Source: an uncultured delta proteobacterium
Lineage (GTDB): Bacteria; Desulfobacterota; Binatia; UBA9968
Assembly: GCA_963727625.1 (NCBI GenBank)
Contig: CAVSHR010000011.1
Coordinates: forward strand, 224,001-288,000
DNA length: 64,000 nt
Reading direction: 5' to 3'
The notes below the pieces were generated by a model, which was not told the origin of the DNA, did not search any database, and was given only the letters and a program-made list of their open reading frames with translations. The position numbers were made by a program, and so were the translations under genes. Below are positions 3-56,811 of the stretch, in pieces. Every line of letters begins with the position of its first letter. The stretch's first letter is position 1.

Positions 3-653
3 AAGCCGTACGCGCATTATGAAATTCTTAATTTTGCCGTTCCGGGATACGATCCCTTGGACCAGGTCCTCGTCGTGAACAAAGCGCTTGAATTTAAGCC
101 AAATGCGTTCTTCTATGTGGCCACGGGACGGGAGGCCTCTCGTGCCGCCATACAGTTGGCGACGGCTGCCAGCCGGAAAACCCCAATGCCCTTCGACTAC
201 CTGAAAGATTTGTTGCAGCGAGCGAGCGTGTCACTGGGTATTCCTGAGGTAGTCGCGATCCGTCGCCTCATGCCTTTTCGGAACCAGCTTCTCACCTGGA
301 CTTACCAGACTATTGTGAATCAATCGCGGCAACATAATATGGTGCCGGTGCTGATATTTCTGCCCCAGGTCACCGACGGCGTTTGGAGGGAAGAAACACC
401 CGAGATTCTACGGATTGCGAGAGAAGCGGGGTTTCAAGTACTGGATTTGAGCGACGTCTATTCTAAATACGACGCTAGTGCTGTTCGCGTGGCCGAATGG
501 GATGATCACCCCAATCAGAAGGGGCACAAGATCGTGGCCGCACGTCTCTACGAGCTTTTGAACGAAGACTGGAGCAAAATCTTCGTACCAAAAGTGCCGC
601 TAAGAGACGGTAAGCCAACGACAATTTCTGAAAACTCTCCGCCTCTGCGGTGA
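3..653 (+). CDS. SGNH/GDSL-hydrolase-like protein, C-terminal part (5' truncated by the window edge)
   Basis: The frame is open from base 3: KPYAHYEILNFAVPGYDPLDQV. NFAVPGY resembles SGNH block II and WDDHPNQKGHKIVA resembles block V (D-x-H-P-N-x-x-G-H). Confidence 0.75.
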   Translation, partial: KPYAHYEILNFAVPGYDPLDQVLVVNKALEFKPNAFFYVATGREASRAAIQLATAASRKTPMPFDYLKDLLQRASVSLGIPEVVAIRRLMPFRNQLLTWTYQTIVNQSRQHNMVPVLIFLPQVTDGVWREETPEILRIAREAGFQVLDLSDVYSKYDASAVRVAEWDDHPNQKGHKIVAARLYELLNEDWSKIFVPKVPLRDGKPTTISENSPPLR

Positions 654-733
654 GTCTGGTTTTTTCCCCTTTGGTTGCGACCTCGCAAATCGCTCGCGCG
701 CCGTAACTCAGTGTGCCTGAAAGGAGTCAACAG

Positions 734-991
734 GTGGAAACCGTCGAACAGATGACCACAGCAGTTAAAAGCTACATCCTCAAGGAATTCCTTCCCGGCG
801 AGAACCCGGACGAGCTTACGGATGTGACGCCGCTCATTACAGGGGGAATTCTCGATTCGTTGGCAACGTTAAAATTGGTTGCGTTCATCGAAGAGCGCTA
901 TTGCATCCAGCTCGAGGCGTACGAAGTCGATGTCGAGCATCTCGGTAAGATCGTCGACATTGTGGCGCTGATTCAGTCCAAGTCGAAATAG
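734..991 (+). CDS. Stand-alone acyl/peptidyl carrier protein (PltL/RedO/AnaD-like)
   Basis: GILDSL phosphopantetheine motif in a small acidic protein. RBS AAGGAG at 721-726 precedes GTG at 734. Confidence 0.9.
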   Translation: METVEQMTTAVKSYILKEFLPGENPDELTDVTPLITGGILDSLATLKLVAFIEERYCIQLEAYEVDVEHLGKIVDIVALIQSKSK

Positions 992-7440: not shown

Positions 7441-7704
7441 ATGGACGTAGGAATCATCGCTGAGCGCATTCAGAAATTTCTTGTACATCAGTTTCCGGCA
7501 ACGAAAAACGTCGGCCGTGAAGAGCCGCTGTTGAAGAACGGACTCATTGATTCGCTTGGAGTTCTTGAAGTCGTGACGTTTATCGAAAAAGAATTCGGCA
7601 TTACGTTAACGGACGAGGAGCTTCTACCAGAAAATTTCGAATCGATCGGCAGTATTTCCAACTTTGTCCGGCATAAAATGAACGGAAGTGGAACCCGAGA
7701 TTAA
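7441..7704 (+). CDS. Acyl carrier protein (second type, exosortase-A-locus ACP)
   Basis: GLIDSLGVLEVV..IEKEFGI..TDEELLPENFESI. RBS AGGAG upstream. Confidence 0.92.
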   Translation: MDVGIIAERIQKFLVHQFPATKNVGREEPLLKNGLIDSLGVLEVVTFIEKEFGITLTDEELLPENFESIGSISNFVRHKMNGSGTRD

Positions 7705-9017: not shown

Positions 9018-9401
9018 ATGCCAGCTGTGATAGACACGGATGCGCTGACTGAAAAAATCATCGGGTGTGCGATTGAAGTACATCGCGCCTTTGGCCCAGG
9101 CCTGTTGGAGTCTGCCTATGAGCACTGTCTGGCCCGGGAGCTGTCGTTGAACGATATTCCATTTTGTTTACAAGCGCCGGTCCCGGTTGAGTACAAAGGA
9201 GTCAATCTTGAGTGCGGGTATCGCATCGACATTCTCGTCGATGAACGAGTGATCCTTGAACTGAAATGCGTGGAGAAGATTCTGCCTATACATGAAGCTC
9301 AGCTGCTCACTTACATGAAATTGGCAAACATTAGTATTGGCTTGTTGATTAATTTCAATGTCAGGCGGGTTGTGGATGGTATCAGACGGTTTCGTCTTTA
9401 A
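9018..9401 (+). CDS. GxxExxY protein (PD-(D/E)XK nuclease-like)
   Basis: [49 protein letters not shown]. Confidence 0.95.
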
Positions 9402-9417
9402 AAGGGTTGACAATCTT

Positions 9418-9496
9418 CACGATGGAAATCACGGAGTGCACAGAGTTTGTGGTCCCATAAACCAATCATCTCGGTGATCTCTGTGTGCTCAGTGGT
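9418..9496. repeat. Palindromic repeat downstream of the GxxExxY gene
   Basis: ATCACGGAGTGCACAGAG ... CTCGGTGATCTCTGTGTGCTCAGTGGT, the same family as 8916-8991. Confidence 0.8.
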
Positions 9497-9499
9497 AAA

Positions 9500-11089
9500 A
9501 TGAACCGAACTATGGACTTTCTTATTCACCACATGTTGTTAGCGAGCGCGGAACGCTATCCCGACAAGGAAGCACTGGTCGATGCGACCCAGCGGTTGAC
9601 TTACACCGAAGCGGCGAAGCGATGCACTGCGCTTGCTTCAGGGTTGCAACAGCTCGGCGTCAAACGCGGCGATCGGGTGGGCATATGGCTCGAGACATCG
9701 GTGCTCCAGGCGGTTTCCATTTTTGGCGCCTCCCAATCAGGCGGGGTGTTCGTGCCGATCAACACTCTGCTCTTTCCCGATCAGGCCGCGCACATTATGC
9801 GAGACTGCGGCACGGTAGGTCTGATCGCAACCAAAGATAAGATCTCGGCAGCGGTTGAAGTTTTTCAATCTCTACCAGCGCTTCAGTTTCTAGTTTCAGT
9901 GGATGGAAAGCCCGATTGCGACCTTAATCTCCCGGTCTATTCTTTGGCGGAATTTTCCGCTGCTGATGATCGATGTGGGGCGCGAGACCTGCGCACTGAA
10001 AAAGATTTGGCGGCGATCCTTTACACCTCCGGCTCGACCGGCAAGCCCAAGGGCGTAATGCTAAGCCATTCGCAAGTCATGGCCGGCAGTTCCATCGTAT
10101 CCGACTATTTGAATATCACTTCGAAAGATCGCATCGTCGGCGTGTTGCCGTTGAGCTTCGATGCCGGCCTTAACCAGCTGATGACGGTGATACAGCAAGG
10201 CGCAACCTACGCTCCGATGACGTTCACCTTTGCCCGCGAAATCGTGAAGACGCTCGAACGGGAACGGATCACCGGAATGGCCGGCGTCCCGACGCTCTGG
10301 AGTCTCATGGCGCAGCCGAGCTCGACTCTGGAGAAATCAACTCTTCCGCATTTGCGATACATTACCAACACCGGTGGACGCATGCCCCAAACCGTATTGA
10401 GCGCTTTGCGCCAGGCTCTTAGCGCAACACGTATTTTCCTTATGTACGGATTGACCGAAGCTTTTCGTTCGACCTATCTGCCGCCCGAAGAGCTCGACCG
10501 GCGCCCGGACTCCATGGGAAAAGCGATTCCCAATACGGAAATTCTCGTCGTCAACGAAAAAGGCGAGCGCTGCGCGCCGGGAGAAGTCGGGGAGCTGGTT
10601 CACCGCGGCCCGACGGTGTCGATGGGCTATTGGGGCCAGCCGGAGATCACGGCGAAGGTTCTCCGGCCGCATCCGTTCAATCCTCCTGAGTTAGGGGACA
10701 GTGAAAAAGCTTGCTACTCGGGTGATCTGGTCAAGATGGACGAGGAAGGATTTCTCTATTTCATAGGCAGGCGCGATAACATGATCAAGTGCTCCGGGTA
10801 TCGCGTGAGTCCAACCGAAGTCGAAGAGGTGCTTTTTCAAAGCGGCAAGGTGCGTGAGGTCGGCGTGATCGGTATCCCGGATCCTGTGTTAGGGCAAGCG
10901 ATTAAAGCCTACGTCGTCCCACGTGACGGCGAAGCCATCCACTCGGAAGCGCTGCAGGCTTTTTGTGGTGAACGTATGCCACGGTACATGGTACCGAAAC
11001 TTGTGGAAATAATGGTTTCATTGCCGAAGACAGCGAGCGGCAAAGTTGATTATCCGGCGCTACGAAGAAAAGACCAAGCTTTACCTTAA
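9500..11089 (+). CDS. AMP-forming acyl/aminoacyl ligase, exosortase A system-associated (TIGR03098-like)
   Basis: AILYTSGSTGKPKGV, LPLSFDAGLNQL, ITNTGG, MYGLTEAFRSTYLPP, GELVHRGP.V..GYW, GYRVSPTEVEE. Start at 9500 or 9512. Confidence 0.88.
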   Translation: MNRTMDFLIHHMLLASAERYPDKEALVDATQRLTYTEAAKRCTALASGLQQLGVKRGDRVGIWLETSVLQAVSIFGASQSGGVFVPINTLLFPDQAAHIMRDCGTVGLIATKDKISAAVEVFQSLPALQFLVSVDGKPDCDLNLPVYSLAEFSAADDRCGARDLRTEKDLAAILYTSGSTGKPKGVMLSHSQVMAGSSIVSDYLNITSKDRIVGVLPLSFDAGLNQLMTVIQQGATYAPMTFTFAREIVKTLERERITGMAGVPTLWSLMAQPSSTLEKSTLPHLRYITNTGGRMPQTVLSALRQALSATRIFLMYGLTEAFRSTYLPPEELDRRPDSMGKAIPNTEILVVNEKGERCAPGEVGELVHRGPTVSMGYWGQPEITAKVLRPHPFNPPELGDSEKACYSGDLVKMDEEGFLYFIGRRDNMIKCSGYRVSPTEVEEVLFQSGKVREVGVIGIPDPVLGQAIKAYVVPRDGEAIHSEALQAFCGERMPRYMVPKLVEIMVSLPKTASGKVDYPALRRKDQALP

Positions 11090-19470: not shown

Positions 19471-20760
19471 ATGAGTTCTCCCTGTCAGTTGAGAAGCGAA
19501 CCAATTGTAGGAAAGCTTCCGATGATCAAAATCGTCGAGCGCTTCGGCACACCGCTTTTTGTATATGATAGTGCAATCCTCGAGCTGAAGTGGAACCTGT
19601 TACGCAAAACATATCCATCTGAATTCGCCATTAGTTATTCTGTTAAGGCCAATCCAAATCCCGCCATCATTCGCTTTTTCCTTTCGCTGGGCTGCGGCGT
19701 TGAGATTGCCTCAGGGGGAGAATTTTTCTTGGCTCTGAAGGCGGATTGTCCAGCTCAAAATATCCTATTCGCCGGGCCGGGAAAAACTGAAGAGGAGCTC
19801 GAGTACGTTCTCGCCAATGACATTGGCGAGATCCATTCAGAATCGTTGCTAGAAGTTGAACGAATCAGCGCCATCAGCCGGAAGTTGGGTCTGCGTGCAC
19901 GAGTTGCTCTTCGTATCAACCCAAGTGAAGAAGTTCAGGGTGGAGCAATGCGCATGGGCGGAAAGCCGGTGCAGTTCGGTATTGACGAGGAAATTGTGGA
20001 AGCTGCGATCGACCGAGTGACCAGCGATTCGGCCTTCGAATTCCGGGGATTGCACCTGTTTTCCGGCACGCAAATTTTGGATCATGCGGTTTTGATCCGA
20101 CAGTATCGCAAAGGGATAGAGCTTGGGCTGAAGACAGCGAAAAAAATCGGTCGACCGATTCATACTTTAGATTTTGGCGGTGGTCTCGGCATCCCGTATT
20201 TTCCGAACGAAACACCGCTGGACATGGATGCCTTGCGCGATGGACTTTCCGAATTGATGACGGAGGTCAGGCGAGAGCCGCTATTCTCGGGGACGAGGTT
20301 CATGCTGGAGCCGGGCCGGTATCTGGTCGGTGAAGCGGGGATCTATGTCACACGTGTCATCGATAAAAAGGTATCCCGGGGTAAAACTTATCTGATTGTC
20401 GACGGTGGCATGAACCATCATCTGGCGGCGTCCGGCAATCTCGGACAGGTGATCAAACGGAATTTTCCCGTCGCCATCATTGATAAGCCAACCGGAGGCT
20501 GCACGGAAAAAGTCGATGTTGTCGGGCCTCTCTGTACCCCGCTTGATGTTCTCGCGAGAGATGTGGATCTGCCTAAAGCGGAGGTCGGCGATCTGGTCGC
20601 CGTGTTGCAATCCGGAGCGTACGCGCGCACGGCAAGTCCTCTGGATTTCTTGAGTCATCCGCACCCGGCGGAGGTTTTGGTTTTCAACGGCCAAGTGGAA
20701 CTGATACGGCGCCGGGGCACTTACGAAGACTTGCTCCGGGATATCCCGCAGAATTTCTAG
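19471..20760 (+). CDS. Group IV PLP-dependent decarboxylase, exosortase A system-associated (TIGR03099/BtrK-like)
   Basis: YSVKANP (PLP Lys), GPGKT, MRMGGKPVQFGIDEE, DFGGGLGIPYF, EPGRYLVGEAG, DGGMNHHLAASGNLGQVIKRNFP, GPLCTPLD. Confidence 0.9.
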   Translation: MSSPCQLRSEPIVGKLPMIKIVERFGTPLFVYDSAILELKWNLLRKTYPSEFAISYSVKANPNPAIIRFFLSLGCGVEIASGGEFFLALKADCPAQNILFAGPGKTEEELEYVLANDIGEIHSESLLEVERISAISRKLGLRARVALRINPSEEVQGGAMRMGGKPVQFGIDEEIVEAAIDRVTSDSAFEFRGLHLFSGTQILDHAVLIRQYRKGIELGLKTAKKIGRPIHTLDFGGGLGIPYFPNETPLDMDALRDGLSELMTEVRREPLFSGTRFMLEPGRYLVGEAGIYVTRVIDKKVSRGKTYLIVDGGMNHHLAASGNLGQVIKRNFPVAIIDKPTGGCTEKVDVVGPLCTPLDVLARDVDLPKAEVGDLVAVLQSGAYARTASPLDFLSHPHPAEVLVFNGQVELIRRRGTYEDLLRDIPQNF

Positions 20761-55226: not shown

Positions 55227-56811
55227 ATGACTGTTAACGCGATCAATTCTCGCTGGATCGGTTGGCGATTTCGCCAGCTGTTTAATCTCCGAGCGGCCCA
55301 GTGGTTCGGGGTGGCGTTGCTGTTTGGGTTGTTTTACGGGCGCCTTGTTCCAGGGTTGGTCCTGGATTGGTACGAGCACGAGACTTTCTCGTACGGATTT
55401 CTGGTTCCGTTTATCGCCGGCTATTTGATCTGGCAGAGCCGGGATCGACTCAAATCAATTTCCGTGACCCCGTCTCTCTGGGCCGCTGTCCCTTTGCTGA
55501 TCGCAGTTGTTTGGGTCTTATCGGGCAGACCATCGGCGAGCTGTTTTCCATGCGCCTGTCAATGATTTTGGCGCTGGCGAGTACGGTCTATTTGCTGCTG
55601 GGTACAGAATATTTCAAAGTTCTCTGGTTCCCGCTTTTTTATTTGCTGTTGATGATCCCGGCTCCCTACACCGTCCTGATCAAGGACCTGACGGGCGGTC
55701 ATCTGCGCTATATGAATGATTCCAAGCATGCGGCAACTATTCTCCAGCTGCTCGGTGTCCCGGTATTAGTAGAGGCTTATTTCATTCACATTCCCAACAT
55801 GACCCTGGAGGTTGCCGACGTTTGCAGCGGCGTATCTTCGGTGTTCGCATTATTTGCGTTGGGCACGGTCAACGCCTATTTCCTGCCAACAAGGAATAGT
55901 ACTCAAGGTCTTGCTGGTGGCGTGCACTTTCCCTTTTGCCATGATCGCCAATTTGATTCGCATCGTCGTGATCGCGGTGCTGGCTTATAACCTTGGCGCG
56001 ATTGTTTTTCAGTCGACTTTCCACTGGCTCACCGGTACGACTATTTTTACGTTGGCATTGATCATGCTTATTTCATCCGGCGAGTTTCTTCGGCGAAATT
56101 TTCCTGTGACCTCTGCGCGGAGCTCAGGTTCAACGGAGAGCCCCGGGGATGTGGTCACCAATGAGGGTGAGAGTTCCCTAGCCATATGGATGTCTGGTTC
56201 TGTCTGTCTAATCATTTTTGCCGCCGGACTATTTTTCGCAGAATTCCATCGGCAATGTTCGACGGATAAATCTTGCCGGTCAACTGGGGGCGCTCGCGAA
56301 CCTCGGGGGCTACACGGTCAGTGAAACGCGCTCCCCGGACACTTATCGAGACCCGGCTGCCGATGCGAAACTATCGGTCGTTGTTACGGATCGCGATAAC
56401 AATACTTCGGAAGTGTTTGTCGGATATGCGCGGAGCAAACCGCCGCTGTGCGGTTACAATCGCCGCAACTTGTTTTTCCGGAAAATTGGAATTGAGTATG
56501 GTTCAAGCCCGCGGACATCGAGGTCACCGGTAACGGCGCAATCCGCGGCAACTGGAGTCTTGACTCGCAAGGGCGATTCCATGCGGCTGGTTTTATATTG
56601 GTATCAAATTAACAAGAGCGCCTTCGCAGGAGAGTTTGAATACCGACTACGCCAGTTGAAAAGAGCGCTGCTCGAGCGCCGCAGCGACGGCGCTGTTGTC
56701 CGGCTCGCGACACCGGTCAAGGCTGGAGAACCCATTGAGACTGCACAAGCACGTCTCCGCGCGCTCGGCGGCGCTTTGTATCCAAAGCTGGTGAAGGTGT
56801 TACCGAAATGA
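55227..56811 (+). CDS. Exosortase (EpsH) fused to an EpsI domain, split by several frameshifts
   Basis: Pieces: W..FSYGFLVP...YLIW (55227 frame), FPL.YLLLMIP..LEVADVCSG (55301 frame), ANLIRI and FHWLTG (55812 frame), and EpsI VFVGY..VLYWYQ..RSDGAVVRL (56218 frame). The Cys/Arg/His triad is present. Shifts near 55510, 55900 and 56236, and probably a compensating pair within 56445-56565. Confidence 0.85.

Follow-up and report, generated by a model that had tools for sequence, protein, structure and literature searches.

A fused MBOAT-SGNH membrane protein encoded with a proline-to-pyrrole-like gene trio: a candidate carrier-fed transmembrane acyl relay

In the available part of one account, polymer acylation is described as the work of either a membrane-bound O-acyltransferase (MBOAT) with a separate SGNH protein or a fused AT3-SGNH protein, which is the sole fused type named there, and Dlt is the only pathway presented with a carrier protein (PMC12148441). 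The same part of that source describes an FxYxxF "acyl shuttle" that carries acetyl-tyrosine in PatA and sits on DltX in the Dlt pathway (PMC12148441). Here, a stretch of 64,000 nucleotides from an uncultured delta proteobacterium of the Binatia (assembly GCA_963727625.1, contig CAVSHR010000011.1; G000:C11:224001-288000), referred to below as the window, is analysed together with 18 kb of upstream DNA (L003). The open reading frame (ORF) that crosses the left edge of the window is the tail of an 849-residue membrane enzyme, P0001, in which an MBOAT-type channel is joined to a periplasmic SGNH domain, and it is followed by genes for a carrier protein, an adenylating ligase and a flavin-dependent dehydrogenase. 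The novelty of this four-gene cassette would lie in the union of an MBOAT fold fused to SGNH, a carrier-protein donor and a donor chemistry known from pyrrole natural-product pathways. The literature search returned no description of this system, no report pairing an exosortase with an MBOAT and none joining MBOAT with prolyl, pyrrole and carrier protein, while reports on pyrrole-2-carboxyl groups and exopolysaccharides looked unrelated from their titles and the opening lines of their abstracts.

We consider, with a probability of about 0.6, that the four proteins form a single-polypeptide, Dlt-like, carrier-fed transmembrane acyl relay. In this relay, the PltF-like ligase, recognized by similarity, would activate a substrate that is presumably L-proline and load it onto the adjacent carrier, and the PigA/AnaB-like flavoenzyme would oxidise the prolyl thioester, giving the thioester of a pyrrole-2-carboxyl or pyrroline-carboxyl group. 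The loaded carrier would dock, as modelled, on the cytoplasmic face of the MBOAT domain (residues ~35-421), where H333 would catalyse transmembrane transfer to a tyrosine of the motif G518-Y519-Y520-E521-x-L523. Finally, S606, together with H802 and D800, would take the acyl group and pass it to an extracytoplasmic acceptor. The architecture itself is very probable, and a proline-derived acyl group is favoured with less assurance. It is a tentative extension of the relay that the cassette represents a widespread envelope-glycan modification, in which enzymes of natural-product type would build a proline-derived heterocyclic acyl group (pyrrole-2-carboxyl or dehydroprolyl) on the carrier, and an MBOAT-SGNH relay contained in one polypeptide, with Tyr-Tyr as its internal shuttle, would esterify it to an exopolysaccharide or another glycan of the envelope.

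The original prediction, made from the window alone, had recognized the C-terminal part of an SGNH-like domain in a frame open to the left and had placed an MBOAT gene or domain just upstream, and both proposals were borne out. The frame at the edge (3..653, forward strand) encodes 216 residues, including NFAVPGY (residues 10-16 of the fragment) and WDDHPNQKGH (residues 166-175), and the complete ORF comprises 849 residues in a single frame (L003:16104-18653), starting 1,897 bases before the window, with an SGNH fold in the structure models. The multi-helix domain with an MBOAT fold lies in the same polypeptide, so of the two upstream arrangements envisaged, a separate MBOAT gene or a fused multi-transmembrane N-terminus, it is the fused one that was found, and the nucleophile motif is present as GxS (G604-P-S606) instead of the GDS that had been expected. 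The fusion gene is real, intact and of a length typical of its family: 2,447 database proteins matched P0001 at E <= 1e-3 among 8,000 scored, and the matches listed (the best 120 of the 2,447) have 745-890 residues and 54-78% identity, many of them carrying the JGI label 'DltB (MBOAT superfamily)'. In addition, an OatA-type AT3-SGNH protein likewise holds a transmembrane acyl-transfer domain and an extracytoplasmic SGNH domain in one polypeptide and uses a tyrosine intermediate, as far as the available part of the source describes it (PMC12148441), but the membrane domain of P0001 has the MBOAT fold, not AT3, and its donor is probably a carrier-protein thioester rather than acetyl-CoA.

Pfam and NCBIfam scans of the full protein returned weak GDSL matches only (24.0 bits against PF13472, under the cut-off of 32.9), and the 216-residue fragment alone matched Lipase_GDSL_2 at E 2e-4 and 22.3 bits, again under 32.9. 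Such sub-threshold matches, when the fragment is read in isolation, could suggest an esterase that is cytoplasmic or stands alone and has no relation to the three downstream genes, a reading that is hardly credible given that the fragment belongs to an 849-residue membrane fusion protein and that its link to the carrier, ligase and dehydrogenase holds across many bacterial groups. The two findings named beforehand as damaging to the prediction, an upstream region without MBOAT or transmembrane sequence and a cytoplasmic esterase unlinked to the trio in other genomes, were not encountered. As a separate observation at the end of the gene, the 60 bases by its stop (window 627-686) are 78% identical to G000:C5:1113734-1113793 (E 3.8e-6), a match that may correspond to a short repeated intergenic element.

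The N-terminal domain of P0001 is missed by sequence libraries and, thus, fold comparison and profile-profile alignment were needed to place it. In the AlphaFold2 model, built from 26 relatives with a mean predicted local distance difference test (pLDDT) score of 72.6, residues ~35-421 are assigned to an MBOAT fold, with matches that span model residues ~30-425. The best structural match given by VIA-align was DltB (8jem_A; Z 19.6, root-mean-square deviation 5.1, 365 residues aligned over model residues 35-421), followed by PORCN (Z 17.5-17.7), MBOAT7 (17.0), LPCAT3 (16.0-16.9) and HHAT (16.5-16.7), all of which exceed the Z of about 13 that can occur among helical bundles. Foldseek retrieved the same group, with E of 4.4e-5 for HHAT and ~1e-4 for DltB at target TM-scores of 0.61-0.65, and with the MBOAT matches as a whole (HHAT, DltB, PORCN and LPCAT3) between 4e-5 and 3e-3. 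Moreover, when the P0001 family profile was aligned by hhalign with that of 13 canonical MBOATs, which are Pfam-positive and come from genomes within the same phylum, the probability reached 97.0% in local mode (E 1.2e-10, 419 columns) and 98.5% in global mode (E 1.6e-14, 441 columns). In the alignment, H333, which is kept in all of the 250 relatives of 800-1000 residues used for the conservation counts, falls on the WHG histidine of the canonical MBOATs, W286-R-R-I-N290 falls on their WRRWH motif, which is exact in 11 of the 13, and H256 is kept in 249 of the 250. The nearest named clusters in the ESM Atlas carry PF03062, at 0.87-0.88, and are taken as a lead only.

Several observations on this domain weigh against its assignment. 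The histidine of the bacterial WRRWH motif is replaced in P0001 by an asparagine, N290, that is invariant in the 250 relatives; the Pfam scan gave no match to PF03062 in P0001 at E <= 1, nor anywhere in the genome at E <= 10, in a search where control genomes were matched; and PDB searches with P0001, both single-sequence and profile, returned no MBOAT and no significant SGNH structure. Moreover, the NCBIfam scan of P0001 found no model for the N-terminal domain, and a search of a representative library with its profile gave a best 150 that all belong to the same family of ~850 residues, with no bridge to canonical MBOATs. Eukaryotic MBOATs have Asn or Asp at the second conserved site, and N290 may be a tolerated variant of the WRRWH histidine. 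As modelled and aligned, the N-terminal domain appears to be a divergent MBOAT, too divergent for PF03062, and current family libraries would miss a large MBOAT branch, since 812 proteins in the representative library match the N-terminal profile at E <= 1e-30.

Two extra transmembrane helices follow the MBOAT core in the model (~433-450 and ~469-490), and the residues after ~491 should be periplasmic, because the profile alignment with PatA/AlgI-type MBOATs reaches their extracytoplasmic end. The PatA/PatB, AlgI/AlgJ/AlgX and WssH-type systems also have, according to the part of the source available, an MBOAT core, two extra transmembrane helices, an outer tyrosine motif and an SGNH transferase (PMC12148441), and the P0001 family profile aligns end to end with the 13 canonical members. 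However, those systems use acetyl-CoA without a carrier protein and keep MBOAT and SGNH separate, whereas P0001, besides its N290 and its lack of a PF03062 match, has an internal GYYExL motif in place of a C-terminal FxYxxF. A C-terminal F.Y..F is found in 13 of 13 canonical MBOATs. P0001 contains no literal terminal FxYxxF, and only 105 of the 250 relatives retain Y488, the residue that hhalign matched to the canonical tyrosine; this low conservation counts against a conserved shuttle at that position and led to the rejection of Y488 as the shuttle tyrosine. Thirty residues further on, conservation is close to complete (G518 in 247, Y519 in 250, Y520 in 249, E521 in 244 and L523 in 239 of the 250), and this stretch, GYYENL in P0001, is proposed as the functional equivalent of the FxYxxF shuttle. 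On the other side, it is modelled with a pLDDT below 50. If the relay operates as proposed, P0001 would be a natural single-chain test of the tyrosine-shuttle model.

The MBOAT domain and the carrier protein were modelled as a complex from alignments of 30 and 28 sequences, respectively, in three runs, which scored 0.74, 0.73 and 0.74, with 0.00 as the best of three controls. Among solved complexes, 116 of 157 reach a score of 0.74, as do two of 215 mismatched pairs, counts that hold only roughly here because our own alignments were used. At least 95% of the contacts are shared between the runs, partner pLDDT is at least 82, and the models place S49 of the carrier against residues 298 and 302 and D48 against residues 283 and 287, on the helix by the WRRIN motif. 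The DltB-DltC complex has been solved, and the favourable score may reflect likeness to it, which lessens its weight. Carrier docking on the MBOAT domain is thereby supported at the level of a model.

The Dlt system (DltA, DltC, DltB, DltX and DltD) offers the same order of parts, from an ATP-dependent stand-alone ligase to a carrier, an MBOAT-fold protein and an outer SGNH serine enzyme, and its DltB is both the best structural match of the P0001 N-terminal domain and the counterpart of the domain on which the carrier was modelled. In contrast, MBOAT and SGNH are here in one polypeptide, a flavin dehydrogenase is added, the ligase is PltF-like and the equivalog cut-offs of DltA and DltC are missed. 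The Dlt system is a Gram-positive one, whereas the hosts of the cassette are mostly of Gram-negative type, judged by record titles. The internal GYYExL motif may replace the tyrosine microprotein DltX.

Residues ~560-830 of P0001 correspond to an SGNH fold in two structure models (Z 14-20.6), one of them a separate model of residues 495-849 (pLDDT 82.7) that was compared by VIA-align with 48,161 representative chains. The nucleophile S606 lies 28 residues before the window edge, and the catalytic positions are well conserved: G604-x-S606 and H802 in all of the 250 relatives, N643 in 248, D800 in 243 and G648 in 213. The motifs are atypical, which counts against the assignment, since the aspartate stands two residues before the histidine (D-x-H, not DxxH) and no clear GxND was seen on inspection of residues 673-677. 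A comparison with AlgX and DltD had been recommended; AlgX, AlgJ and DltD were absent among the best 50 entries listed in either VIA-align run, which is no evidence that the folds differ.

The top structural match of the domain is CgnD (Z 19.6-20.6, 246 residues aligned), an SGNH-type hydrolase that acts as a slow leader peptidase, according to the available part of its description (PMC10070186), and this match therefore informs on fold and not on function. Esterases and acetylxylan esterases follow at Z 14-16 (EstA 15.8, acetylxylan esterase 15.6). As the closest solved structures are hydrolases, the domain could itself be a hydrolase, and the cassette would then export free pyrrole-2-carboxylate or pyrroline carboxylate to the periplasm; indeed, SGNH transferases and hydrolases cannot be told apart by sequence, a further point against assigning transfer to the domain. 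This alternative seems improbable, given that the release of a free acid needs no membrane relay with a conserved tyrosine motif, that the transferase PatB (Z 13.4) and the salicylyl-acyltransferase SsfX3 (Z 13.1) are matched too, in the same range as Ape1 (Z 11.7-13.1), and that the frequent setting of the cassette in polysaccharide loci fits a polymer acceptor.

The supply line of the relay is encoded directly downstream, where the original prediction had described a Dlt-like arrangement with an added dehydrogenase. A carrier, an adenylating ligase and a dehydrogenase of the prolyl-carrier type were found there, so the stand-alone ligase and carrier of the Dlt comparison hold good, and what had to be revised is the kind of ligase, which resembles PltF and not DltA. 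The coordinates of these and the other features of the cassette are collected in Table 1.

Table 1. Features of the fusion gene and its downstream partners (window positions unless stated otherwise)
Feature	Position	Strand	Evidence
Fusion-gene tail (protein P0001, residues 634-849)	3..653	+	ORF and translation, SGNH fold, conservation
Residues 1-633 of P0001 (MBOAT domain, two further transmembrane helices, GYYENL 518-523, S606)	G000:C11:222104-224002, outside window		
SGNH block II, N643 and G648	30-32 and 45-47	+	Translation and conservation
D800-x-H802 motif	501-509	+	Translation and conservation
Carrier protein, 92 residues, phosphopantetheine site S49 in GILDSLA	713..991	+	Profile matches, S49 conservation
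Stand-alone amino-acid adenylating ligase, PltF-like, 520 residues	1001..2563	+	TIGR01733, PDB, pocket comparison
Acyl-CoA-dehydrogenase-family flavoenzyme, 383 residues	2560..3711	+	NCBIfam, PDB matches

The four genes are separated by gaps of 59 and 9 bases and then by a 4-base overlap of the ligase stop with the dehydrogenase start. Promoter and terminator scans found no promoter-like site in the intergenic gaps and terminator-like sites inside genes only, so it is the spacing that argues for an operon. The S49 of the carrier is invariant in 28 of 28 aligned orthologues, and its profile matches solved peptidyl carrier proteins best (2my5, 62.1 bits), followed by PltL (50.6), PigG (40.9) and DltC (35.1). 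In NCBIfam, it scores 112.8 bits with ACP_for_OlsHI (cut-off 130) and 19.9 with the DltC model NF003464 (cut-off 68), both below threshold. An identity as the carrier of OlsHI ornithine-lipid synthesis was considered and dropped, since the score is below the cut-off and the GH3-like enzyme and alpha/beta hydrolase that the pathway uses, according to the available part of its description (PMC12493201), are absent here.

The ligase exceeds the cut-off of TIGR01733 (387.6 bits) and remains below those of the DltA models (314.8-320.2 bits; for TIGR01734, 314.8 vs 559.85). Its best single-stretch match in the PDB is PltF (6o6e, 371 bits), with DltA at 251.8, and for the pocket segment alone the values are 141.6 bits for PltF, 75.9 for the next match and 74 for DltA. 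At the specificity-code positions, which we take to follow the GrsA numbering, the ligase equals PltF 6o6e save for one residue, F for L (FDLSIF vs FDLSVL), and by these comparisons it is a candidate L-proline--[carrier protein] ligase. The two best NCBIfam models for the flavoenzyme are PigA (455.6 bits, cut-off 500) and RedW (431.2, cut-off 650), and its top two PDB matches are the prolyl-ACP dehydrogenase 4irn (350.4 bits) and the L-prolyl-PCP dehydrogenase 5zw0 (330 bits). AnaB stops at pyrroline, whereas PigA, RedW and PltE go on to pyrrole. All three downstream proteins thus resemble, by these matches, the members of a proline-to-pyrrole trio, none being a certified equivalog, and the fact that the dehydrogenase and the carrier are under the curated equivalog cut-offs tells against the relay as proposed.

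These results bear on a further alternative, in which the acid loaded by the ligase would be a different amino acid or carboxylic acid, and the resulting acyl-carrier would be the substrate that the flavoenzyme desaturates. In its favour are the shortfalls of the dehydrogenase from the PigA and RedW thresholds, the generic butyryl- and isovaleryl-CoA dehydrogenases that come close behind (285-304 bits), the one pocket position unlike PltF, and the loci L071, L078 and L054, where fusion gene and carrier stand without a PltF-like ligase nearby. It has little probability all the same, as the ligase, carrier and dehydrogenase are each best matched by proline-to-pyrrole or prolyl-ACP structures and the pocket segment is nearly twice as similar in bits to PltF as to DltA.

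A proline-derived donor would place the partners beside the prolyl-to-pyrrolyl trios PltF/PltL/PltE, PigI/PigG/PigA, RedM/RedO/RedW and AnaC/AnaD/AnaB, which provide the best solved matches of all three. Unlike in those pathways, no ketosynthase, nonribosomal peptide synthetase or halogenase recurs with the cassette in the ORF clustering of 80 loci, and the place of the assembly line is taken by a membrane MBOAT-SGNH protein. Since the curated thresholds of every named family are missed, the cassette is a new variant and not a member of any of them. As a general reservation, it should be borne in mind that three features of the relay are inferred, namely its acyl group, its tyrosine intermediate and its acceptor.

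The association of the four genes was followed in a scan of one genome per species, in which at least 583 stretches encode a P0001 relative and from which 79 loci were kept. By their record titles, these belong to Nitrosospira, Burkholderiales, Rhodocyclaceae, Aromatoleum, Thauera, Accumulibacter, Methylomonas, Mesorhizobium, Kiloniellales, Acidobacteriota, Gemmatimonadota, Anaerolineales, Planctomycetota, Verrucomicrobiia, Methylomirabilota, Binatia, KSB1, Calditrichaceae and Rhodothermales. Neighbours were counted as tblastn matches with at least 40% identity and 50% coverage. In 57 of the 71 loci that extend at least 400 nucleotides past the fusion gene, a carrier gene on the same strand begins within 400 nucleotides downstream of it. 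Of the 53 loci with at least 4 kb of downstream DNA, 33 have the genes for carrier, ligase and dehydrogenase in one contiguous run after the fusion gene and 41 have all three somewhere in the locus, and among the 44 loci flanked by at least 4 kb on each side, 36 contain the three partners. Ligase and dehydrogenase are both missing nearby in five of these 44 well-flanked loci, which is a point against an obligatory supply line.

When ORFs of at least 70 residues from 80 loci were clustered all against all, the fusion protein recurred in 75 loci, the carrier in 66, the dehydrogenase in 54 and the ligase in 48, and the next independent family was a family 4 glycosyltransferase (GT4) in 10 of the 80; the other large clusters overlap cassette genes in other frames, going by the coordinates of one example member each. 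As only these four families recur widely, the cassette consists of four genes and no more, and it is self-contained and patchily distributed. A search of 30 relatives, 18 from the same genus and 12 from the same order, gave a homologue in only one, at 59% identity, and the cassette is thus accessory and not a lineage trait.

Some of the loci depart from this arrangement in other ways. Two fusion-gene copies are present in each of L020, L069 and L063, and in L069 each copy is followed by a carrier gene of its own. In Methylomonas subterranea (L046:10790-12522 and L046:4855-6078), a Rieske dioxygenase alpha/beta pair lies between carrier and ligase, and upstream there are a flavin enzyme weakly similar to CmlS halogenase (125.6 bits, far under the cut-off), a ketosynthase and FabG. 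A Rieske alpha subunit is also found nearby in L071, and the acyl group may be further tailored in the genomes of L046 and L071.

In the genome studied here, the cassette sits inside an XrtA/PEP-CTERM exopolysaccharide locus, with family models above cut-off on both sides (TIGR03108, TIGR04063, TIGR03088, TIGR03098, TIGR03097 and TIGR03087). Upstream of it are an amidotransferase (TIGR03108, 849.6 bits), a GT4 glycosyltransferase, a TIGR04063 glycosyltransferase and a methyltransferase; downstream are a TIGR03088 glycosyltransferase, a polysaccharide deacetylase, a GNAT-like protein and a second carrier protein; and further downstream are a ligase (TIGR03098, 642.8 bits), TIGR03097, a second amidotransferase, TIGR03087 and a TIGR03099-like decarboxylase dependent on pyridoxal phosphate (449.1 bits, under its cut-off of 478.45). 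In L012, L040, L042, L078 and L080, too, the cassette has polysaccharide or PEP-CTERM genes beside it. The exopolysaccharide of the surrounding locus is accordingly the likeliest acceptor in this genome, a proposal to which we give slightly less than even odds. If the envelope-glycan reading is true, a new type of glycan decoration would exist in environmental and wastewater bacteria, such as Accumulibacter, Aromatoleum, Thauera, Nitrosospira and Methylomonas.

The same relay might serve another acceptor, namely lipopolysaccharide or lipid A, peptidoglycan, a membrane lipid, or the glycan of a secreted or PEP-CTERM protein. In L072 (acs, actP, glyA, nrdR and ribD) and L037 (dapB, carAB and greA), the neighbours of the cassette are housekeeping genes, and XrtA, searched for in five other genomes that carry the cassette, was above cut-off in two, represented by a weak exosortase match in one and without a match in two, which both speak against the exopolysaccharide and in favour of another target. 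The cassette is in fact independent of XrtA, as an obligate co-occurrence was not observed. In addition, no glycosyltransferase or export gene accompanies the cassette in more than 10 of the 80 loci, and known MBOAT/SGNH pairs modify peptidoglycan, teichoic acids, alginate and cellulose, as stated in the available part of the source (PMC12148441). A different acceptor is nevertheless unlikely in our estimation, as polysaccharide or PEP-CTERM genes surround the cassette both here and in the five loci named above, and the data favour no one specific alternative.

Other features of the surrounding locus are recorded in their own right. A second carrier-based set is present at window positions 7441-7704, 9485-11089 and 19471-20760, encoding a PP-binding carrier, the exosortase-A-associated TIGR03098 ligase and the TIGR03099-like decarboxylase, and the locus thus appears to hold two separate acyl-loading systems. 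The genome contains a single exosortase (XrtA-like) match, which is split over window 55227-56811 into the ORFs 55227..55565, 55301..55990 and 55812..56324, all below the TIGR03109 cut-off (best 83 bits vs 208), and it could be a frameshifted pseudogene or the product of assembly errors. The series of biosynthetic genes is broken by repeats and by small genes that have been inserted: upstream of the window there is an ORF of three near-identical repeats of ~32 residues (L003:8095-8415), followed by a small helical ORF (L003:9395-9814), and a gene for a GxxExxY protein (TIGR04256, 147.5 bits) lies at window 9018-9401, within the polysaccharide locus. In Aromatoleum anaerobium (L042:5290-7602), the cassette adjoins a bifunctional CysN/CysC (1065.5 bits) and a TIGR03098 ligase (792.9 bits), a neighbourhood that hints at a sulfated polymer in this organism.

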